Positions 353-43,187 of a DNA stretch of 60,266 nt are shown piece by piece. The position numbers and the translations under genes were made by a program. The notes below the pieces were generated by a model. It worked only from the letters and a program-made list of their open reading frames with translations, was not told the DNA's origin and did not search any database. Source of the DNA: an uncultured Planctomycetia bacterium (GTDB lineage: Bacteria > Omnitrophota > Gorgyraeia > VGKH01 > JBHPFN01); the NCBI GenBank assembly GCA_964406665.1, contig CAYOSQ010000011.1, positions 1-60,266 of the forward strand, read 5' to 3'. Numbering within the stretch: position 1 is the first letter of the stretch; each line of letters starts with the position of its first letter.

Positions 353-694
353 TTGACTAGAAGAATAATTATAGCATTGTGTTTAACATGTTTTTTGTTT
401 GGATGCGCTTCTTTTAGGGAAAAACGAGAAGAAGAAAGAGAGAAACGCGAATTGCAGGAAGAGAATTACCAGAAGTTAAGGACTGATTCAAAAGAAAAAA
501 ATCTTTTTTTAGGACAAACCTGTGAGAATATCGTAACGTTATATGGAGAGCCAGAAGATGTTTTTAGATCTTCATCTGATGTAAGTAGTTTGGAAATCTG
601 GACGTATGATACTGTGCTTGGAGAAAATCAACTTTTTGATAGACCAATTCGTTTATATTTTAGCAATTGCGAATTAACATCGTGGACAAATTAA
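353..694 (+). CDS. small lipoprotein (possibly BamE/SmpA-OmlA-like)
   Basis: GAGGAGG at 341-347 precedes TTG 353. The N-terminus LTRRIIIALCLTCFLFGC has a lipobox. The longer ORF-track start at 293 would overlap tRNA-Pro. Confidence 0.6.
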   Translation: MTRRIIIALCLTCFLFGCASFREKREEEREKRELQEENYQKLRTDSKEKNLFLGQTCENIVTLYGEPEDVFRSSSDVSSLEIWTYDTVLGENQLFDRPIRLYFSNCELTSWTN

Positions 695-728
695 CTTGTT
701 GTATAGGTTTTGAAAAAGGAGAAAACCT

Positions 729-4095: not shown

Positions 4096-5294
4096 AATAT
4101 GTAATTTTAATACCTGATGGAATGTCTGATTATCCTGTTGAAGAGCTAATGGGCAGAACTCCTTTAGAGGTTGCCAATACTCCTAATATGGATTCGATTG
4201 CTAGAGAAGGCATTGTAGGACTGGTTAACACAATTCCTAAGGGGATGGTTCCGGGATCTGATGTTGCCAACTTAGCAATTTTAGGATATGACCCAAAACA
4301 ATATTATGCAGGTAGAGGTCCTTTAGAGGCTGCTAATTTAGGTGTAGAGTTAAAAGAGGGGGAAGTTGCTTTCAGGTGTAATCTAATAACTGCTGAGAGC
4401 GATAAACTTATAGATTATAGCGCCGGTCATATTAGTACTAAGGAGTCTTCCATATTAATTAAATTTCTTGATAAACAACTCGGTGGTGAAAACTTGAAGT
4501 TTTATTCAGGGATAAGCTATAGACATCTTGCTGTAATAAAAACTGATAATGTTGATGGTTTGTTGCAGGTTAAGTGTTTGCCTCCACATGATATTATGGG
4601 GGGAAAAATTTCCAAGAATCTACCTAAAGGAAAAGAAGCTTCTCTTTTGAGTGATTTGATTCAGCGCTCCAGAGAGGTTTTGACTAAACATGAAATTAAT
4701 CAGGTTAGAATTGATCTTAAAGAAAATCCTGCTAATATGATTTGGCTTTGGGGTCAGGGAATAAAGCCTCAGATGCCAAAATTCATGGATAAGTTTGGTT
4801 TAAGTGGTTCAGTAATCTCTGCAGTGGATTTGATAAAAGGCATTGCAAAAATTATTGGCCTTGAGGTAATAAAAGTTCCTGGGGCAACTGGGTATTATGA
4901 TACTAATTATAAAGGTAAAGCTGAGCATGCTATTGAAGCCTTAAAAAAGGATGATTTTGTTTTTGTGCATGTAGAGGCTACTGATGAAGCGGGACATAAT
5001 GGTGATTTGAGGATGAAAATATCTTGCATTGAAAAATTTGATCAAGAGATCGTTGGTAGAATATTAGAATACTTGAAAGTAAATGGTGACTTCAGGATTT
5101 TAGTTAGTCCTGATCATGCAACCCCTGTTAGTATTCGTACGCATGCGAGCGATCCTGTTTGTTTTACAATGTGTGGAAAAGGCATTGATGCTTCTGGTGT
5201 TGAAGAATTCTCTGAAAAAACTGCAAAAGAGGCTAATTTCGTCATAGAAAAGGGCCATGAGTTAATGAATTATCTTGTTAAAGAATCTCTATGA
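4092..5294 (+). CDS. cofactor-independent phosphoglycerate mutase family protein (ApgM type); proposed non-orthologous homoserine kinase
   Basis: Archaeal-type iPGM / alkaline-phosphatase-superfamily signature (PDGMSD, HVEATDEAGH, SPDHATP). It is embedded in the hom-thrC cluster, which has no thrB. Confidence 0.75.
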   Translation: MKYVILIPDGMSDYPVEELMGRTPLEVANTPNMDSIAREGIVGLVNTIPKGMVPGSDVANLAILGYDPKQYYAGRGPLEAANLGVELKEGEVAFRCNLITAESDKLIDYSAGHISTKESSILIKFLDKQLGGENLKFYSGISYRHLAVIKTDNVDGLLQVKCLPPHDIMGGKISKNLPKGKEASLLSDLIQRSREVLTKHEINQVRIDLKENPANMIWLWGQGIKPQMPKFMDKFGLSGSVISAVDLIKGIAKIIGLEVIKVPGATGYYDTNYKGKAEHAIEALKKDDFVFVHVEATDEAGHNGDLRMKISCIEKFDQEIVGRILEYLKVNGDFRILVSPDHATPVSIRTHASDPVCFTMCGKGIDASGVEEFSEKTAKEANFVIEKGHELMNYLVKESL

Positions 5295-33410: not shown

Positions 33411-34361
33411 ATGGAGAAGTTATTACGCGTTAAAAATAATGAAGAGCTTCAGGTTCTCATTGGAAATTTTGATGAGAATATAAAATTAGTTGAGGCTGAA
33501 TTAGACGTTAAGATATTTCCTAAACATGGAGGCCTTAAGATTTCCGGTACTCAAGAACAGGTTGATAAAGCGCTGTGCGTTTTAGAGTCCCTTCAAGAAA
33601 AAAGAAGAAGGACGCGTTTAATCGACAGGCAAGATGTTACTACAATTATTAGAGCAACTAAATTAGGCAAATCTGTTGATATAAATTCATTACTGGACGG
33701 CTCTATTGATGTTCCGCTGAAAGATATCACCATAGTTCCTAAGACCAAGGGTCAAAATGAATATATAGAAGCGATTAAGCATTATGATATCGTATTTTGT
33801 ATTGGTCCCGCTGGTACTGGAAAAACATATTTAGCAATGGCTATGGCGGTAGCTGCTTTGAAAAAAGGAATCGTTAAAAGAATTGTTTTGACTCGGCCAG
33901 CAATAGAAGCCGGAGAAAGCCTTGGTTTCTTGCCGGGAAATCTAACTGATAAGATCTCTCCTTATTTAATACCGCTTTACGATGCTTTATATGACATGAT
34001 GGAGGTTGAGCGGATTGAGAAATATCGGGAGACGGGAATTATTGAGGCTGCACCAATTGCTTACATGCGAGGAAGAACCCTTAATGATGCATTTGTGGTA
34101 TTGGATGAAGCTCAGAATTGTACGTCAGATCAAATGAAGATGTTCTTAACTCGTCTGGGATTTGATTCTAAAACTGTAATAACCGGAGATATCACCCAGA
34201 GTGATCTTACCGGAGGAAAGCCTGATGGGTTGCTTCAGGCTGAGAAGTTGTTTAAAGACATTCAGGGAATAAAGTTTTCTTATTTGACAGGTGCAGACGT
34301 AGTGCGCCATCATTTAGTGCAAGAAATTATAAAGGCTTACGATGCTGCAGAACATAAATAA
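33411..34361 (+). CDS. ybeZ: PhoH-like ATPase
   Basis: GPAGTGKTYLAMA Walker A and VLDEAQN. Confidence 0.92.
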   Translation: MEKLLRVKNNEELQVLIGNFDENIKLVEAELDVKIFPKHGGLKISGTQEQVDKALCVLESLQEKRRRTRLIDRQDVTTIIRATKLGKSVDINSLLDGSIDVPLKDITIVPKTKGQNEYIEAIKHYDIVFCIGPAGTGKTYLAMAMAVAALKKGIVKRIVLTRPAIEAGESLGFLPGNLTDKISPYLIPLYDALYDMMEVERIEKYRETGIIEAAPIAYMRGRTLNDAFVVLDEAQNCTSDQMKMFLTRLGFDSKTVITGDITQSDLTGGKPDGLLQAEKLFKDIQGIKFSYLTGADVVRHHLVQEIIKAYDAAEHK

Positions 34362-35853
34362 TAATTCTTTGTTATCTCAACCAGTTATTCTTATCTTAAT
34401 TGTGCTAGCACTGTTTATTATTGCCTATTTGATAGATATCTCTTTAGCTATTCCAGTTCTACTCATAGTAATTTTAGGCTACTTAAGAATGTCGTATAAA
34501 AAGCTCGCAGGAAAGATTTTACAGTTAGCGCTTTTAGCTGTTTCTATTATTGTTGCTGGAAAAATCATTATTAATTTTTTTGATATATCTGCTTATTATA
34601 TACCTGTTGTTGCTTTAGCCATGTTGACTGTAATACTTTTTGAGAGCCTGGAATTGGCTTTGGCCATGACTGTTTTCTCAAGTCTTACAATAGGAATTAT
34701 GGCCGGTAATGATTTTGTGCTTACTTTCATTTTAATGATCGGCGGGATAGTCGCATCATTTTTTGCCCATGGTTCTCGCAGGAGAGCCCAAATTTATAAA
34801 GCAGCTATGTTTGCAAGCATAATTCAGCTGTTTTGTATTGTACTTTTTTCATATCATTTTGACACCCCTATCTACGAGATCATCAAAGTAGATGTTGAGC
34901 CGATAATCAGAAGCGGAATATTCTTCTCTTCAGATACTCTTTCAGGTTTACACATTATGCTTAGCGGAATAATATCATCATTTTTGGCTCTTTCTAGCTT
35001 GATAATTTTCGAAAATCCTTTCAAGGTTGCAACAAGCTTTACTTTATTGGAAATGTCTGATTTCAATCATCCCCTGTTGAGAAAAATGATTCTAGAAGCT
35101 CCGGGTACTTATCAACATAGTTTGATAGTAGGAAATCTTGCGGAAGCTGCTGCTGAAACTATTGGCGCTAACTCACTTCTTGCAAGGGTGGGCTCCTATT
35201 ATCACGATATAGGTAAGATTGACAAGGCAGAGTATTTTAGTGAAAATCAGCTTCATTCAGGAAGTAAGCATGATAAACTACAACCTTCCATGAGCAGTTT
35301 GTTGATTATTAATCATGTAAAAGAAGGAGTTGAATTAGCAAAAAAACATAGACTGAAACCTTCGATTATAGATTTTATCTCCCAGCATCATGGGACAAGC
35401 TTAGTATTTTATTTTTACCGGAGGGCTTTAGAAAGTAAAGCTGAAGAAAATGAAAAACATTCAGTGGAAGAGGAAAGATTTCGCTATCCTGGGCCTAAGC
35501 CACAGAAGAAAGAAACAGCCATTGTTCTTTTAGCTGATTCTGTCGAAGCTGCCTGCAGGACGCTTGCGGAGCCAATTCCTGGCAAGATAGAAGAGCTGGT
35601 GAGAAAGATCATAAATAATAAGTTTATCGACGGACAGCTTGATGAGTGTGAGCTAACATTAAAAGAGATTGAGAAAATTTCTACAACATTTATTAAAATC
35701 TTAAGTGCGATTTATCATAGCAGGGTTGCCTATCCTGCAGATTCTGATGAGATAAAAGATGAGAATAAGCGTAATAAATCTTCAAAAGAAAATTCCTATA
35801 AAGGAAAGCAGAATAAGAAGAATAGTCAAACAGATTCTGCTCCTTCAAAATAG
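34342..35853 (+). CDS. 7TM-receptor HD/HDIG phosphohydrolase (YqfF family)
   Basis: Multi-TM N-terminal half followed by an HD domain (HSLIVGNL...YYHDIGK). The low-complexity Lys/Asn tail overlaps ybeY. Confidence 0.85.
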   Translation: MLQNINNNSLLSQPVILILIVLALFIIAYLIDISLAIPVLLIVILGYLRMSYKKLAGKILQLALLAVSIIVAGKIIINFFDISAYYIPVVALAMLTVILFESLELALAMTVFSSLTIGIMAGNDFVLTFILMIGGIVASFFAHGSRRRAQIYKAAMFASIIQLFCIVLFSYHFDTPIYEIIKVDVEPIIRSGIFFSSDTLSGLHIMLSGIISSFLALSSLIIFENPFKVATSFTLLEMSDFNHPLLRKMILEAPGTYQHSLIVGNLAEAAAETIGANSLLARVGSYYHDIGKIDKAEYFSENQLHSGSKHDKLQPSMSSLLIINHVKEGVELAKKHRLKPSIIDFISQHHGTSLVFYFYRRALESKAEENEKHSVEEERFRYPGPKPQKKETAIVLLADSVEAACRTLAEPIPGKIEELVRKIINNKFIDGQLDECELTLKEIEKISTTFIKILSAIYHSRVAYPADSDEIKDENKRNKSSKENSYKGKQNKKNSQTDSAPSK

Positions 35854-36187
35854 ATCCGAAGCAGAACTTTCCCTTGTTTTTGTTAATGACTCCGCTATAA
35901 AAAAATTAAACAAAACATACCTTAAGAAAAATCACACTACAGATGTTTTGTCATTTGATTTTAAGGAAAAAAACCAGTCAAAACGATTGTTGAATGCTGA
36001 AATAATAATTTCATTGGAAACGGCTTTAAGAAATTCAAATGTTTTTGATGTTTTATTATGGGATGAAATTGTATTGTATCTTATTCACGGAATATTGCAT
36101 CTTTGTGGTTATGATGATAGAGCTGTAAAAGATAAACAGCGCATGGATAAAAGACAGAAATACATTTTAAGTAAAATAAAGAAATGA
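35759..36187 (+). CDS. ybeY: rRNA maturation endoribonuclease YbeY
   Basis: HGILHLCGYDD zinc motif; the N-terminus is canonical from ATG 35759. Confidence 0.92.
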   Translation: MRISVINLQKKIPIKESRIRRIVKQILLLQNRSEAELSLVFVNDSAIKKLNKTYLKKNHTTDVLSFDFKEKNQSKRLLNAEIIISLETALRNSNVFDVLLWDEIVLYLIHGILHLCGYDDRAVKDKQRMDKRQKYILSKIKK

Positions 36188-36924
36188 TAAGAAAAGCAAC
36201 CGGAATATTGATAAAGAGGGTTAATTTCAGAGAAACCAGTTTGTTAGTTACTTTTTTTACAAAAGAGTTTGGTAAGATTAAGGGAATAATAAAAGGAGTG
36301 AGGAAGGATCCTAAAAAGATTTCCAGCAATCTTAGCTTATGTTCGTTAAACGAAGTTGTTTTCTATGAAAAAAGAAATAGTGAGCTTAATCTTATTAGTC
36401 AGTGTGATTTGATGAAAGATTTTAGTTTTTTAAGAACCGATATGCAAAAAGTTTCATTGGCTAGCTATATTTTAGAGCTTGTTGATACGGTGATGCCTTT
36501 GCATGATCCAAATATAGAAATTTTCAATTTGATAATAAGTAGTTTAAAAAGTATGAAAACTGGTGATCTTGAGAAAGTTTTGTACTGTTTTCAAGTAAAA
36601 GTATTATCACTTTCTGGATTTAAACCTCATTTAGATGCATGTATAACCTGCAAAAATAAAATTCATGGAGAGGCACATTTTAGCATCTATCTTGGTGGTC
36701 TGATATGCTCTGATTGTAAAAGCAAGGATATGAACGCAAGTCCAGTCTTGAAAGGGACAATAAACTCTTTAATTCATTTAGAAACTTTTTCTTGGGTGAA
36801 AGCTTTAAATCTAGGTATAAGTAAACAAATGCGCCTTGAACTTCGAAGTGTATTATATAATTTTCTTTCTTTTCATCTTGATAAGAGAATGAAATCTTTC
36901 CGTTTCCTCTGTAACACCGTATAA
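36184..36924 (+). CDS. recO: DNA repair protein RecO
   Basis: OB-fold N-terminus and a C.C...C.DC zinc motif. Confidence 0.88.
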   Translation: MIRKATGILIKRVNFRETSLLVTFFTKEFGKIKGIIKGVRKDPKKISSNLSLCSLNEVVFYEKRNSELNLISQCDLMKDFSFLRTDMQKVSLASYILELVDTVMPLHDPNIEIFNLIISSLKSMKTGDLEKVLYCFQVKVLSLSGFKPHLDACITCKNKIHGEAHFSIYLGGLICSDCKSKDMNASPVLKGTINSLIHLETFSWVKALNLGISKQMRLELRSVLYNFLSFHLDKRMKSFRFLCNTV

Positions 36925-37034: not shown

Positions 37035-37062
37035 TTGACATTTTGCATTTTTGTATTATACT
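37035..37062 (+). promoter_or_regulatory. sigma-70-type promoter driving the riboswitch leader
   Basis: TTGACA (37035-40), 16-nt spacer, TATACT (37057-62). Confidence 0.7.
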
Positions 37063-37078
37063 TTTATAGACAATTTGA

Positions 37079-37177
37079 TTCTCGTTTGATAAAGGCAAAC
37101 CATTCGAAAGAATGGGGCGCAAAGCTTAAGAGCCTTAATTCTTAAAAAGAAAAAGGCAGTCAGCTACCGGGTGAGAA
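37079..37177 (+). promoter_or_regulatory. c-di-GMP-I (GEMM-I) riboswitch aptamer
   Basis: The core GGCAAACCATTCGAAAGAATGGGGCGCAAAGC (37094-37125) is almost identical to the Vc2 aptamer core. Other elements are a CCATTC-GAAA-GAATGG tetraloop helix, a second helix AGCT/GCCTT...AAGGC/AGCT with a CUUAAG receptor-like bulge, and a closing P1 TTCTC (37079-83) / GAGAA (37173-77). Confidence 0.8.
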
Positions 37178-37186
37178 TTTTTTTAT

Positions 37187-37225
37187 TACACCCATTCTTC
37201 AAATGAGATTGGGTGTATTTTTTTT
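37187..37225 (+). terminator. intrinsic terminator (riboswitch expression platform)
   Basis: TACACCCA (37187-94) pairs with TGGGTGTA (37210-17). T8 (37218-25) follows, then GGAG and ATG 37236. Confidence 0.8.
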
Positions 37226-37235
37226 GGAGATTACA

Positions 37236-37967
37236 ATGAACAAAATATTGAAAACATTATCTGTTTTTGCAATGCTGGCAATAGTGTTTTTATTTTCCAG
37301 CGAAGCATTTGCTGAAGTTAAAATTGCTGTTATTGATTCAGGGTCAACAGAACAGCATTTTAAATCTATAAGTTTTTCTTCAATTCCAGCAAGCGAAGAT
37401 CCCATCAGCCACGGGACAAAGATCGCCGGGATTATAAGGGATTATAATCCCGGCGCAAAGCTCTTCGTGTTGCAGGTATGCGAAGAAGAAAATGGCCATT
37501 ACAATCCTTCGAAGAAAAGCGTTCTTAATGCAATAAGATGGTGCATGGAAAACGACATTGACATAGTCAATCTTTCGCTGGTAATTGAATACAATAAGGA
37601 AATAGAAAAGGCAATAAAGCAAGCATATCTTGAAAAAGGCATTATCTTTGTTGCAGCTGCTGGAAATAAGACAGCTTTTAGCCAATTCGCAGTTAATTCT
37701 GATGGATATGTATGTTTCAACAAGAAAGATAGTGGTCCTAAGTTTCCTGCATCTGGTGATTATGTAATTTCAGTTGGAGCAAAGGATATTAGAGGAAGAG
37801 TTACGGGTTACTCAACCAAAGATGTGGACGTTTTCTCTAATGGAGATTATGCTAAACTTGAAGGAACTTCATTCGCATGTGCCAGAGTTACAGGTAAAGT
37901 ATCTAAATTATTAGCATTCAAGGAAGATATTTCCATCAAAGATTTAAAGCTCGCCTTAAAGAAATAG
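37236..37967 (+). CDS. secreted minimal subtilisin-family (S8) serine protease, no propeptide
   Basis: Signal peptide MNKILKTLSVFAMLAIVFLFSSEAFA. Catalytic Asp (AVIDSG), His (HGTKIAG), oxyanion Asn (AAAGN) and Ser (GTSFACA). The start is placed after the terminator at the GGAG-proximal ATG. Confidence 0.8.
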   Translation: MNKILKTLSVFAMLAIVFLFSSEAFAEVKIAVIDSGSTEQHFKSISFSSIPASEDPISHGTKIAGIIRDYNPGAKLFVLQVCEEENGHYNPSKKSVLNAIRWCMENDIDIVNLSLVIEYNKEIEKAIKQAYLEKGIIFVAAAGNKTAFSQFAVNSDGYVCFNKKDSGPKFPASGDYVISVGAKDIRGRVTGYSTKDVDVFSNGDYAKLEGTSFACARVTGKVSKLLAFKEDISIKDLKLALKK

Positions 37968-38125
37968 ACTAACCATTTAACAAAACCAATCACAACCAGC
38001 ACTTTTTTCCACTTTTTTTATTTTTTTGTGCTAAATTTTGTTTTGATATTTAAAAAACTGCATTTATCTATGTTAAGTCTTTATTTTATAGTTAGTTACA
38101 TATAAATATAAAAGAAAGCGCTTCC

Positions 38126-38154
38126 TTGACACTTAAATTTCCACGTGCTACACT
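38126..38154 (+). promoter_or_regulatory. sigma-70-type promoter of the FecR-domain gene
   Basis: TTGACA (38126-31), 17-nt spacer, TGcTACACT extended -10 (TACACT 38149-54). Confidence 0.65.
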
Positions 38155-38245: not shown

Positions 38246-39124
38246 ATGAAAAGAATCTTTTTAGTTGTGTTTTGTTTAGTTGTTGTATTTTCTTTTTCTG
38301 CTTCAGCCTATTGTCAAGATGCTGGCTTTGCAAAAGTTATTTATGTTGAAGGCAGTGTTTCTTCAAAAGCTTCAGTGGATGACGATTGGACAAGTATTGA
38401 GGTGGGCATGCTTCTTGCTGAAGGTACAATCGTTAAGGCAGAGGCGGCTTCTTCCTGTGAAGTTGCTTTTGACGGAAGTTTGGATAATGTAATCGGAATT
38501 AAGGAAAATACGGAAATAGTGCTTGAATCTCCTATAAAACTATATTTATCTAAAGGAAGAGTTTTCACTTTAATTAATTTAGATGAAGGTTCTACTTTTG
38601 AAGTTCATACTCCAACTGCTATTGGTGGTGCAAGAGGAACAGGTTGGCTTACTGATTTTTTAAATGGCGTTACAACATTTAAGCAATTTGAAGGAAGTAT
38701 TTATGCTTCCGGTAAAGATAGAGACGGTAATCCTTTGGGAAAAATTGATCTTCCTGCTGGTTTTTCAGTAGAGGTAGAAGATTCACAGGAGCCAGGTGAC
38801 ACTGCTGAATTGGGCGAAAATGACTTTGTAGATTGGAATATTTGGAGGAGAGATTTACATCTTCGCGGCCTGCCATCACTTGCTGAGGCAATCCAAGATG
38901 AAATGGGAGATGTCTTTGATCCTGAAAGCGGTTTTGCTGCCGGTGGAAGAGATTTTGTTTATATCCCACCTGGTTCTGGCGCAGCCGGTCCAGATGGAGG
39001 AGTAAGCAGTGGTGATATTACTTTAACCGAGGAACCTCCACCTCCTGATTGTCCTCCTTGGGATAAAAGATGCTGGACGCAGCCTGAGGAGCCAGATTAT
39101 CCATCTTTGAGCAATCATCGATAA
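38246..39124 (+). CDS. secreted FecR-domain protein with Pro-rich, Cys-containing C-terminal tail
   Basis: Signal peptide, then a FecR-like beta-sandwich signature (EGSV...W..I..G..L..G..V......S.EV and TPTAIGGARGTGW). The tail reads EEPPPPDCPPWDKRCW. Confidence 0.7.
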   Translation: MKRIFLVVFCLVVVFSFSASAYCQDAGFAKVIYVEGSVSSKASVDDDWTSIEVGMLLAEGTIVKAEAASSCEVAFDGSLDNVIGIKENTEIVLESPIKLYLSKGRVFTLINLDEGSTFEVHTPTAIGGARGTGWLTDFLNGVTTFKQFEGSIYASGKDRDGNPLGKIDLPAGFSVEVEDSQEPGDTAELGENDFVDWNIWRRDLHLRGLPSLAEAIQDEMGDVFDPESGFAAGGRDFVYIPPGSGAAGPDGGVSSGDITLTEEPPPPDCPPWDKRCWTQPEEPDYPSLSNHR

Positions 39125-39218: not shown

Positions 39219-39259
39219 TCTTTCAGTTATTGGTATTTCTTAAATAATTGAATATTATT

Positions 39260-39658
39260 ATGAAAAAGAGAATATTTTTATTTACATTAGTCATTATATT
39301 TTCTACAGTTTATTTTATTCAACCTGTTCTTGCTGCTGATGATGTTGAATATCCTGCCTTTATTAAGTTCCTAAGAAGCATTCTTCAGAAGGTTGATTTT
39401 ACCACTGGTGTAACCTCAGAGTATGAAACAAATATTTTTCTTACTGAAGATGCAGAATCTTCTGATTTTAAAAATACATTAACTCAAGAAGTTTCTCTAG
39501 AGATTCCTGAGGATCCGTTTTATTTAAAGGTGGATTATCTGGGAAATCTTTCCTATTATATGGGAGAAGGTGATCATCTGCATGATCATTTGGCCAGTTT
39601 CCTTTTTGCATACAGGCCTTATGAGGATATTTCTGTCGGCATATCTAATAATTTTTAA
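39260..39658 (+). CDS. outer-membrane beta-barrel protein, N-terminal part ending at an in-frame TAA
   Basis: ATG 39260 gives the signal peptide MKKRIFLFTLVIIFSTVYFIQPVLA. The reading frame continues unbroken past TAA 39656-58 into the next ORF. Confidence 0.6.
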   Translation: MKKRIFLFTLVIIFSTVYFIQPVLAADDVEYPAFIKFLRSILQKVDFTTGVTSEYETNIFLTEDAESSDFKNTLTQEVSLEIPEDPFYLKVDYLGNLSYYMGEGDHLHDHLASFLFAYRPYEDISVGISNNF

Positions 39659-39766
39659 AAGGTTTTTTCAAAAAGTATTGTTACTCCTTTTGGTGATCGA
39701 CTTCTTACCAGAGGTTATAAAGAAGATTATCCTTCTTTTGAAGTAAAATGGGAACCGATTGATAAT

Positions 39767-40468
39767 TTGGTAGTTGATGCTGCTTATTCACATTATTGGA
39801 TTGATGCAGATGCGACTAACGATGACTTTATTGATAGAGATGATAACATTGGAACATTCTCTTTAACTTATGATCTGTGGCCTGATGTTGCTTTATTCCT
39901 TGGTCATAGATATTATGATGCGCATTTTCCCAAGGTTGCTGAAAAAGATGCTTTAAGCTCTAGGGTTTTTTACGGAGCGACTAAAAAATTTCCTGGGCTG
40001 CTTAATGTGTCTACGGAAGTTGGGCATGAGCATAAACATACAAATTATTTGAGAGATGATTCAAATACAGATGCAAGATTAGTGATTAATTCGACCTTTT
40101 CAGTTTATACAGTCTTGAATTTTGTTTATACATTTAACCGGGTGCTACCTTCGGCGAGAAGAGAGTATTTTCAATATTTCTCAAACTCCATAGATTTAAG
40201 CGTTGAGCATCTTATAAATCCGAAGACTTCTATTTTTGCCGCAGCTAGTGTTGAAAAACAATATTTTGATTCTTCTGATGCTTTGCCAGGGCAATCTACA
40301 ATAGATAGGGCAACAGAGATTGTTTCATTTGGGACATCCCTAAAAAGAAGCCTTAACGATTATTTGGATCTTCATTTAGGATATGAATTTACAAAACGAA
40401 ATACAGATTTTACCAAAGAAGGTTATTCCGATAACAAAGTAAGTTTAAGCTTAACAGCAAATTATTGA
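39767..40468 (+). CDS. outer-membrane beta-barrel protein, C-terminal part (the frame is already open from 39659, same phase as the upstream part)
   Basis: Alternating hydrophobic beta-strand pattern and a terminal aromatic beta-signal (VSLSLTANY). There is no RBS or ATG of its own; the ORF-track start is a TTG. Confidence 0.6.
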   Translation: MVVDAAYSHYWIDADATNDDFIDRDDNIGTFSLTYDLWPDVALFLGHRYYDAHFPKVAEKDALSSRVFYGATKKFPGLLNVSTEVGHEHKHTNYLRDDSNTDARLVINSTFSVYTVLNFVYTFNRVLPSARREYFQYFSNSIDLSVEHLINPKTSIFAAASVEKQYFDSSDALPGQSTIDRATEIVSFGTSLKRSLNDYLDLHLGYEFTKRNTDFTKEGYSDNKVSLSLTANY

Positions 40469-40472
40469 TATT

Positions 40473-40976
40473 ATGAAAAGAGCAATTATATTAACTTTGA
40501 TAGTTCTGGGCTTAATCGGCCTGTTGAATAAAACAGTGTTTTCTCAAGAAGGCCCGATTACTCAGGAGCAGTTTGCTGTTGAATTAGTTAAAAGTATGGA
40601 GATTTCAGATCATCTTCCACTTGCGGCGTTACCAAGAGATTGTGTTATGCTTCTTGAAACTATAGGTATTTCTCCTTTAAAGGGTTGGGATAGAAAAGCT
40701 TTACTCACAGATGATGACTATACAGTTATTGTTGCCAAATCTGTAGGGAAGGAAAAGCTGGTTCATACAAAAGCCACAGAAGTATGTCTTCGTACTATCG
40801 CTGTTATAAATGCTAGGTGGCAGAAAAAACCTAACCTATCTTTGCATGAGTTGCTTAATGATTTAAGTATCTTTCCAGAAGGCCCTCCAAAATGTCCTTA
40901 TGGTTTAAAGTATGAGGATAAAAATTCAGATACTGTAGTGGATCCTCATTATCATTCAGTCCTATTATCCAAATAA
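40473..40976 (+). CDS. small secreted protein of unknown function (weak SLH-like N-terminal motif)
   Basis: Signal peptide MKRAIILTLIVLGLIGLLNKTVFSQ. ITQEQFAVELVKSM resembles SLH-type motifs. No family is firmly recognised. Confidence 0.55.
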   Translation: MKRAIILTLIVLGLIGLLNKTVFSQEGPITQEQFAVELVKSMEISDHLPLAALPRDCVMLLETIGISPLKGWDRKALLTDDDYTVIVAKSVGKEKLVHTKATEVCLRTIAVINARWQKKPNLSLHELLNDLSIFPEGPPKCPYGLKYEDKNSDTVVDPHYHSVLLSK

Positions 40977-40988
40977 AAAATATTATTT

Positions 40989-43187
40989 TTAGACTTTAAG
41001 TTTAGCTATTTGTTGTTTTATGTTTTCAGCTAAGTTTTCTGCAATTCTGGGGATTTTGGAGAGGTCTTTAATCGGGGCTTCTTTAATGTCGCGAAGTTTT
41101 TTAAAGCCTTTTTTAAAGAGGTTTCTTGCTCTGACTCTGCCGATTCCTTTTAGGTATACTAGATCAATCAGCTCTTCCTTGATTCCATACCTAATTCTTT
41201 GTTGAAGCATTTCTAGTGGTTCGATTACTTTGTCAAATTTAAATAGTTTAGAAATTGATACAGCGCTATAAAGAAGCCACTGCGCAGTGTCGATGATTCG
41301 TCTTATATCTCCTGGACCCACGTTAAACTTATCACACATGGCTTCTTCTTTTTCTTCATTCATCCAGTCTAAAAGCATCCAGCCGGTTTTAATCATTGAA
41401 AGCCGTGTTGAATGATCGAAGGAATAGAGTTCATCTTCTTCACAGTTAAAGATTTCTTCTTCATTTACATCTTGAAATAATTCTAATTTTTCCAAGTCAG
41501 ACTTATTGACCATTAGCAGCTCCATATCTGCACAGGAACAAATAATGAATAATAGATGGAAGTCTGAAATGGAACTCTGTGATTCTGACAATTTTTTTAA
41601 ACCATCTCTTAATACGATACCTGTTAGAGGATCAATATAAAGTCTGTTAACACAGCTGCCAAATGCAGTTGGGTAAAAGCGGAACCCTGCGCGCTTTATT
41701 AGATTTTCTGTTTCAAGGAATTCAAATAATCTACTTATAAGCTCTATGAGATTTTGCGTGTTTCTCTGATGCGCGAGAAATGTATGTGAGATAAATTCAA
41801 ACATGCCATTAATATCGTAAACGTATCCGCTAGCTATGGAAGATAGAATGTGTGTTCTAAGCGCATTTTCAGAGCCTAGTTTTGAGCTTATGGGTTCTGG
41901 GGTCGAATGTATATAATCACTAAAGACGGCCTTATATTCTGATAGAGACTTTACCAGGATAACCGATTCTCCAAATTTATCATACTTAGGTCTACCAGCA
42001 CGTCCGGCGCATTGCTTATATTCAAAAACAGGAATAGAGACAGAGCCTAAACCAGGACGATATCTTTTATAGTCTCGGATTATTACTCTTCTTGCAGGTA
42101 GGTTTACTCCGGCAGCCAGTGTTGGGGTTGCGCATATTGTTTTGATAAGCCCCTCTTTAAAATTATTTTCTATGAGTTTTCTTTGGGCATGATGAAGACC
42201 GGCATGATGGAAGGCAACGCCGAATCTTATAGAGCTGGCTAGCTGATTACAAATTTTGGTTGGTTCTCCCAACGTGCCTTCAATTTTCGCAGCGACTTTA
42301 TCTAAAAGCTGTTTTTCATTATCAGACAGATACGCAGCGATTTTTTTTCCAATATTTCTTGTAACTGCTTGAGTTGAGCGGCGGCTATTTACAAAAATAA
42401 GATTTTGTCCTTTTTTCTTAATTGTATCTAAGCAAAGTGCAGTTAATTCATCAATGCCAAAGGCTTTTATATGTTTGCTTGTGCCATCTGCAAAGTCTAT
42501 GCTTTCCAGATAGTAAACTCCTTCTTTAAGAGGGATAGGACGCCAGTCGCTGAAAATTAATTCAGCATCAAGCCAGCCTGCGATTTCATCGGCATTTTTT
42601 ATAGTTGCACTTAGTGCAAGAAATTGGATTTCTTTATTAAGTTGTTTTAGTCTAGCAGTCAGTATTTCAAGGGTTGGTCCGCGGCGTTCATCATCAATAA
42701 AATGTATTTCATCTAGAACAACGACTTGCAAAAGTTTGGTAAGCCATTTGGCACGAAATCTAAGCAAGGAGTCTACTTTTTCGGATGTTGCTATTAGAAT
42801 ATTGTAGTTTGCAAGGTTGTTGCTGTTTAGATCGAAATCTCCTGTTGCGATACCAACTTTAATACCTAGGCGTTCATATCTTGATTTAAAATCATCATAT
42901 TTTTCACTGGCTAGAGCTTTTAGGGGAACGATATATAGACAAAGCCCGTCACCTTTATTTTCAAGTATGGATTTTACCATGCACATTTCAGCTATCAGAG
43001 TTTTTCCTGAAGCAGTGGGTAGTGCAAGAACCAGGTTTCTTGAGGTCAGGATACCTTTTTTAAGCGCTGATACCTGAAATGGGTATAGCTTTTCTATTCC
43101 AGAGTCTTCTAGCGTAGAAACTAATTCTTTGGGAAGGGAGAATTTCTTAGCGAGTTTTTTGTCAAACATACTATATTCTTTTAGCAT
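40989..43187 (-). CDS. Ski2/Hel308-family superfamily-2 DNA helicase (archaeal type)
   Basis: Motifs I PTASGKT, Ia PLKALASEK, II DEIH, III SAT, V TPTLAAGVNLPA and VI QCAGRAGRP. It also has a winged-helix/ratchet region and a C-terminal helix-hairpin-helix (LKGIGRVRARNL). It is the only complete minus-strand gene in the window. Confidence 0.85.
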   Translation of the reverse strand: MLKEYSMFDKKLAKKFSLPKELVSTLEDSGIEKLYPFQVSALKKGILTSRNLVLALPTASGKTLIAEMCMVKSILENKGDGLCLYIVPLKALASEKYDDFKSRYERLGIKVGIATGDFDLNSNNLANYNILIATSEKVDSLLRFRAKWLTKLLQVVVLDEIHFIDDERRGPTLEILTARLKQLNKEIQFLALSATIKNADEIAGWLDAELIFSDWRPIPLKEGVYYLESIDFADGTSKHIKAFGIDELTALCLDTIKKKGQNLIFVNSRRSTQAVTRNIGKKIAAYLSDNEKQLLDKVAAKIEGTLGEPTKICNQLASSIRFGVAFHHAGLHHAQRKLIENNFKEGLIKTICATPTLAAGVNLPARRVIIRDYKRYRPGLGSVSIPVFEYKQCAGRAGRPKYDKFGESVILVKSLSEYKAVFSDYIHSTPEPISSKLGSENALRTHILSSIASGYVYDINGMFEFISHTFLAHQRNTQNLIELISRLFEFLETENLIKRAGFRFYPTAFGSCVNRLYIDPLTGIVLRDGLKKLSESQSSISDFHLLFIICSCADMELLMVNKSDLEKLELFQDVNEEEIFNCEEDELYSFDHSTRLSMIKTGWMLLDWMNEEKEEAMCDKFNVGPGDIRRIIDTAQWLLYSAVSISKLFKFDKVIEPLEMLQQRIRYGIKEELIDLVYLKGIGRVRARNLFKKGFKKLRDIKEAPIKDLSKIPRIAENLAENIKQQIAKLKV

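Follow-up and report, generated by a model that had tools for sequence, protein, structure and literature searches.

A class I c-di-GMP riboswitch, most likely an OFF switch, ahead of a small exported subtilase gene in Candidatus Omnitrophota

The gene for a small exported subtilase on an Omnitrophota contig is led by a canonical class I cyclic di-GMP (c-di-GMP) riboswitch, which is most likely an OFF switch of transcription, a reading to which we give a probability of roughly three in four. The stretch of DNA that was analysed, 60,266 nt in length and called the window throughout, carries recO at 36184-36924 (RecO_N and RecO_C domains), and the 311-nt gap between recO and the next ORF holds a promoter, the aptamer, an intrinsic terminator, a GGAG and the ATG (Table 1). 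The identity of the aptamer, its ligand-contacting residues, the terminator and the conserved arrangement of the locus were all computed, and are described here together with what they suggest about the direction of the switch.

Table 1. Features of the subtilase leader and of the genes that follow it, in window positions
Feature	Position	Strand	Basis or remark
Sigma-70-type promoter, TTGACA / 16-nt spacer / TATACT	37035-37062 (-35 at 37035-40; -10 at 37057-62)	+	11/12 consensus match
Leader box AGACAATTT ((T)TGACAATTT in relatives)	37068-37076	+	conserved between -10 hexamer and P1
P1, 5' strand	37077-37088	+	MFE fold; kept in 14-sequence alignment
c-di-GMP-I aptamer, RF01051	37084-37171	+	covariance-model match, full model
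P1b	37100-37115 (37100-05 / 37110-15; GAAA loop 37106-09)	+	MFE fold
P1, 3' strand; includes GGGUG 37169-73, able to pair with 37189-93 instead	37168-37179	+	MFE fold
Intrinsic terminator: hairpin 37187-37217 and U8 37218-37225	37187-37225	+	-15.7 kcal/mol, z = -4.4 against shuffles
UCAAAUGAGA, terminator loop and inner 3' arm, candidate antiterminator strand	37200-37209	+	complementary to UCUCGUUUGA 37080-89 (P1 5' strand)
Shine-Dalgarno GGAG	37226-37229	+	read from sequence; unpaired in MFE fold
Regulated gene: 243-aa exported minimal S8 (subtilase) peptidase	37236-37967	+	Peptidase_S8, predicted Sec signal peptide
FecR-like / Lsa33-like protein	38246-39124		
Beta-barrel protein resembling BBP2_2 and PEP-CTERM-associated outer-membrane proteins	39248-40468		
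167-aa protein	40473-40976		

A preliminary description of this DNA had proposed a c-di-GMP-I (GEMM-I) riboswitch and named a match to Rfam RF01051 as the check. The match is found over the complete model (positions 1-87 of 87) with 77 bits and an E value of 2.1e-13, against a gathering score of 35, and it is the sole riboswitch match in an Rfam scan of the 60-kb window. With this match, the comparison with the Vc2 core made in the preliminary description can be dispensed with. The MFE fold of 37069-37240 (-44.4 kcal/mol, z = -3.2) has the class I architecture, with P1, a P1b capped by GAAA, and P1c, and the leader fold energy beats that of 200 out of 200 shuffles. The GAAA-capped helix that had been recognized by eye is P1b in this fold, and the 5-bp P1 drawn at the same time makes up part of a longer predicted P1 of 12 bp (37077-88 / 37168-79) that contains many G-U pairs. 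The CUUAAG that had been read as a tetraloop-receptor-like bulge, by contrast, falls at 37125-30 in the lower P1c helix; in the Rfam alignment the bulge equivalent to the receptor consists of UUAA (37136-39) facing AAA, and since the consensus is CUAA/uAu the window departs from it here. The consensus fold of 14 aligned orthologous leaders keeps P1, P1b and P1c, with at least one double pair-preserving change in 10 of the 22 predicted pairs, and P1 across the 14 sequences shows G-U/A-U exchanges and some double changes.

Searches of genome and metagenome contigs with the protease alignment gave at least four useful loci (L087-L090, all from metagenomes) and otherwise generic subtilases. Fourteen loci encoding homologues with 43-62% identity were fetched and scanned with Rfam, and in 13 of these an aptamer of the c-di-GMP-I clan (56-79 bits) lies directly 5' of the protease gene. 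The gene 5' of this aptamer-protease unit varies, and may encode RecO, an Rnf subunit, hemerythrin or other proteins; the exceptional locus, L176, encodes the most divergent homologue and has a different gene context. Because riboswitch, terminator and protease stay together while the upstream neighbour differs, their link is independent of local synteny, and this conserved link is the strongest argument for cis regulation of the protease gene. Those homologues that carry a source name (43-62% identity) come from Candidatus Omnitrophota genomes, and several contigs from a single metagenome series encode the same protein.

Two of the loci hold a further match to the c-di-GMP-I clan, at 4167-4226 (+) of L174, 5' of a 633-aa protein without Pfam matches, and at 621-698 (-) of L176, 5' of a 145-aa ORF. 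Omnitrophota seem to use several riboswitches of this clan.

The near-consensus promoter of the preliminary description (TTGACA, 16-nt spacer, TATACT) is present and is the top-ranked site of a promoter scan, which overall returned 7 sites against 5.9 expected from shuffles and so shows no enrichment. Its credibility comes from conservation, since each of the 14 orthologous leaders is preceded by a -35/-10 pair of this layout in which the -10 is TATACT or TATATT. Transcription would begin about 7 nt downstream of TATACT, which puts the inferred start near 37069. A short conserved box follows; it reads TTGACAAT(T) in half of the leaders (7/14), and the window and L169 have a form of it that ends in GACAATTT. 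The box was located in the window and in L167, L169, L172, L175, L088, L089 and L090, always 5' of P1 and at a variable distance of roughly 4-25 nt from the -10 hexamer, and no conserved partner for it was found. A role of the TTGACAATTT box as the -35 hexamer of another promoter was weighed too and discarded, as its spacing to any -10-like hexamer is inconsistent when judged by eye, and a transcript from such a promoter would be without the P1 5' strand.

At the other end of the leader, the hairpin and T8 that had been described at 37187-37225 form an intrinsic terminator, in which 8 and 4 bp flank one mismatch. The GGAG and the ATG at 37236 are likewise both present, the ATG 10 nt from the terminator, and there is no sign of translational control, the GGAG being unpaired in the predicted folds. 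In all 13 relatives a hairpin and U-tract also follow the aptamer, starting 4-14 nt past P1 and sharing no nucleotide with it. Many of the leaders (among L087, L088, L089, L090, L170, L172 and L175) have one or two extra hairpins past the first terminator and ahead of the S8 gene, most of them with a U-tract, and those of the more distant relatives often share a GCCTACyCTTAT-like 5' arm. These extra hairpins could be terminators in tandem or copies of a repeat.

Switch direction and antiterminator identity are what we infer from these elements and their folds. At high c-di-GMP the ligand would lock the aptamer, including the 12-bp P1, while the terminator hairpin and its U8 form and transcription stops before the GGAG and ATG. 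At low c-di-GMP P1 would be unlocked, and strands of the aptamer would pair with the 5' arm and loop of the terminator, so that no terminator forms and the protease mRNA is made. The MFE fold of the window leader holds aptamer and terminator at once, and in the window and in 13 of 13 relatives both terminator arms lie 3' of P1 with no nucleotides in common with the aptamer. Since a self-contained terminator coexists with the folded aptamer, the ligand cannot prevent termination and could only keep aptamer strands from pairing elsewhere; the logic is that of an OFF switch, a polarity that is reasonably well supported. Class I riboswitches of both polarities exist, as a general statement (PMC6366702), and the same aptamer might in principle serve as an ON switch in which bound c-di-GMP prevents termination and induces the protease. 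This is unlikely in the present leaders: a folded, liganded aptamer cannot sequester a terminator strand when the terminator arms share no nucleotides with it, and every alternative pairing that was found uses up aptamer strands.

The pairing that would operate in the unliganded state of the OFF switch was sought in the folds of the growing transcript and in the relatives. For transcripts ending at 37200, 37205 and 37210, antiterminated folds beat the P1-closed form by 1.5, 4.2 and 10.9 kcal/mol, the last being the difference between -40.0 and -29.1 kcal/mol. The best alternative fold of the window moves both P1 strands onto the terminator, as UCUCGUUUGA:UCAAAUGAGA and GGGUG:CACCC, and the best-scoring antiterminator candidate would pair 37080-89 with 37200-09 and 37169-73 with 37189-93. 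A second candidate in the window would join AAGAAUGGG (37108-16, P1b 3' strand) to CCCAUUCUU (37191-99), a duplex of -13.9 kcal/mol with z = -3.95. When the P1b 3' strand and junction are set against the terminator 5' arm, z lies between -3.9 and -5.9 in the six closest leaders, including the window, and L174 has two compensatory changes in this pairing. Over all 14 leaders the 5' P1/junction segment against the terminator 5' arm and loop has a mean z of -1.6, with six leaders below -2, and the P1c control against the same arm and loop has a mean z of -0.01. A conserved antiterminator of the usual design, P1 3' strand with terminator 5' arm, was rejected, as over the set of 14 leaders this pairing does not outperform shuffled sequences (mean z = -0.07). 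The competition of GGGUG (37169-73) for CACCC (37189-93) that had been suggested earlier is accordingly a feature of the window's best alternative fold, but one that is not conserved in relatives. In a whole-leader test, where the terminator 5' arm and loop are added and compared with shuffled arms, p is at or below 0.005 in 5 of the 14 leaders, and the value for the window is not significant (z = -1.3, p = 0.09). The predicted partner segment differs among leaders, with three segments in all, and the identity of the antiterminator may differ between lineages.

As the MFE fold of the complete leader contains the terminator every time, any regulation would have to act kinetically. In all of the full-length leaders the terminator prevails thermodynamically, with a margin of 6-18 kcal/mol to the best fold found when its 3' arm is blocked, and such dominance would also suit an aptamer and terminator that act mainly as a stand-alone, constitutively terminated c-di-GMP-binding small RNA of about 155 nt, exerting no control over the protease. 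Bdellovibrio has a riboswitch-derived RNA of this stand-alone kind. The two or three tandem terminator-like hairpins of several relatives, and the weakness of the antiterminator test in about half of the leaders, point in the same direction. We nevertheless consider a free-standing RNA improbable, as the element remains with the protease gene while the upstream gene changes in all but one of the 14 loci, the stretch from the terminator to the ATG shows no promoter of its own, and several leaders have significant complementarity between aptamer and terminator.

Binding of c-di-GMP itself we infer from the ligand-contacting positions, which are canonical in Vc2 numbering: G20 (37094), A47 (37121) and C92 (37167) align to invariant consensus columns, A47 having been placed from the single-column difference between RF01051 and RF03167. 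G20 and C92 have described roles in ligand contact, and an A at position 20 is the criterion for cGAMP riboswitches (PMC6140456). It would be very surprising if the aptamer sensed another cyclic dinucleotide, whether the 3'3'-cGAMP of GEMM-Ib or whatever the "GGC" variant binds. With cmscan, six orthologous aptamers fell into RF03167 (c-di-GMP-I-GGC), at 59-64 bits and so barely over its gathering score of 59, but position 47 is A (GCAAA) in 14 of 14 sequences where RF03167 has G (GCGAA), and membership of the six in RF03167 was rejected since the defining G47 is missing in all of them. These calls are most readily put down to the models of the clan competing with one another; P1 is included in RF03167 as well. 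The cGAMP type is excluded by sequence because position 20 is G throughout the 14 leaders. Fold and Rfam clan (CL00126) are common to the window aptamer, RF03167 and GEMM-Ib, and some orthologous leaders score marginally higher with RF03167, whereas the window has neither the G47 of the GGC variant nor the A20 of GEMM-Ib.

On the side of the second messenger, no GGDEF, EAL or HD-GYP gene was found with Pfam among the 30 scanned ORFs of the window, only housekeeping genes, and synthesis of c-di-GMP in this organism is therefore assumed. A protein with 7TM-7TMR_HD and HD domains is encoded just upstream at 34342-35853 (+) in the phoH-ybeY-recO cluster; we take this architecture to be PgpH-like, that is, of the c-di-AMP phosphodiesterase type. 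The cluster is a housekeeping one and is unconnected to the c-di-GMP element.

The regulated gene encodes a subtilase, as had been proposed, with a match to Pfam PF00082 (Peptidase_S8) of 69.5 bits against a cut-off of 21.8. D34, H59, N144 and S212, which make up the Asp/His/Ser triad and the oxyanion-hole Asn, are invariant in 29 homologues. The accompanying proposal that the protease is secreted holds as far as the N-terminus, a typical Sec signal peptide (…SSEAFA/EVK). The protein is without a propeptide, the catalytic Asp being the eighth residue past the predicted cleavage site, and alignments to subtilisin BPN' start at BPN' residue 24. The best NCBIfam match is QhpE (NF049966), at 83.2 bits and so under the equivalog cut-off of 165. 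QhpE is a cytoplasmic single-turnover protease dedicated to a leader peptide (PMC7876137), and like the window protein it is small and has no propeptide; it is encoded in qhp operons, whereas the window protein has a signal peptide and its gene adjoins FecR-like and outer-membrane beta-barrel genes. The window protein is therefore like QhpE in size and fold but does not belong to its family.

In function, the nearest precedent is the class I riboswitch 5' of zmpI (PPEP-1/Zmp1) in Clostridioides difficile, which is negatively regulated by c-di-GMP (PMC6366702), and the mention of this system in the preliminary description is confirmed by that paper. In zmpI, as in Cd1 (5' of flgB), a class I aptamer is followed by an intrinsic terminator and control by c-di-GMP is negative (PMC6366702), as we propose for the window, and the product of zmpI is an exported protease, which for the window is predicted from the signal peptide. 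However, ZmpI is a zinc metalloprotease of a Gram-positive host with known adhesin substrates, while the window encodes a putative serine protease in a diderm candidate phylum. Set beside RF01051 and Vibrio cholerae Vc2, the window leader has the same P1, P1b (GAAA) and P1c, the same G20, A47 and C92 and the same 5'-leader position, and differs in its Omnitrophota host, in the UUAA/AAA bulge in place of CUAA/uAu, and in the minimal S8 peptidase downstream.

The riboswitch class, the terminator platform and the OFF control of an exported protease are therefore already known, and the understanding of the riboswitch class is unchanged by this leader. What is new is the phylum of the host, the control of a minimal S8 peptidase family and the conservation of the pairing across Omnitrophota, none of which we found described in any paper. 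In keeping with the earlier impression that the subtilase pairing had not been described, our literature searches turned up no c-di-GMP riboswitch linked to a subtilisin or a serine protease, and nothing relevant on Omnitrophota and riboswitches. By its sequence, a c-di-GMP-sensing RNA is in use in Candidatus Omnitrophota, for which no model organism is in culture, and where its conserved regulatory target would be a minimal exported subtilase encoded beside surface and outer-membrane genes. The pairing provides a testable handle on what c-di-GMP controls in these bacteria, and would bring a serine protease into the small group of proteases controlled by riboswitches.

Downstream of the protease gene, the cluster of FecR-like, beta-barrel and 167-aa genes is kept in most relatives. 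A separate conserved promoter, AAAGAAAGCGCTTyC-TTGACA-N17-TAyACT (38112-38154 in the window; also in L167, L168 and L169), serves the FecR-like gene, and for this reason only the protease gene is confidently assigned to the riboswitch. The AAAGAAAGCGCTTyC motif directly before this promoter could be an UP element or an operator. In relatives the beta-barrel protein is encoded by one ORF of about 400-420 aa, to which the window aligns in one frame with 53-57% identity; in the window the gene is broken by a single in-frame TAA (39656-39658), and the same split is seen on a contig from another sample (L001). The split gene could be a pseudogene, or else a nonsense allele shared across the population.

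The leader, the propeptide-less subtilase and the FecR-like, beta-barrel and 167-aa genes might together constitute an Omnitrophota-specific surface module that is shut off by c-di-GMP, in which the protease, much like ZmpI with its adhesins, would be dedicated to processing or releasing the surface proteins encoded next to it. We offer this as a tentative and rather doubtful reading. Were it true, second-messenger signalling would be tied to attachment or host interaction in these very small bacteria, and a protease dedicated to processing its neighbours under c-di-GMP control would raise the interest of the locus somewhat.

Beyond this cluster, a 732-aa Ski2/Hel308-like helicase is encoded at 40989-43187 (-), one of two minus-strand ORFs of at least 200 aa in the 60-kb window, the other large ORFs being housekeeping genes on the plus strand. 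Its homologue at locus L169 has DEAD, Helicase_C, archaeal-type helicase domain 4 and HHH_5 domains.
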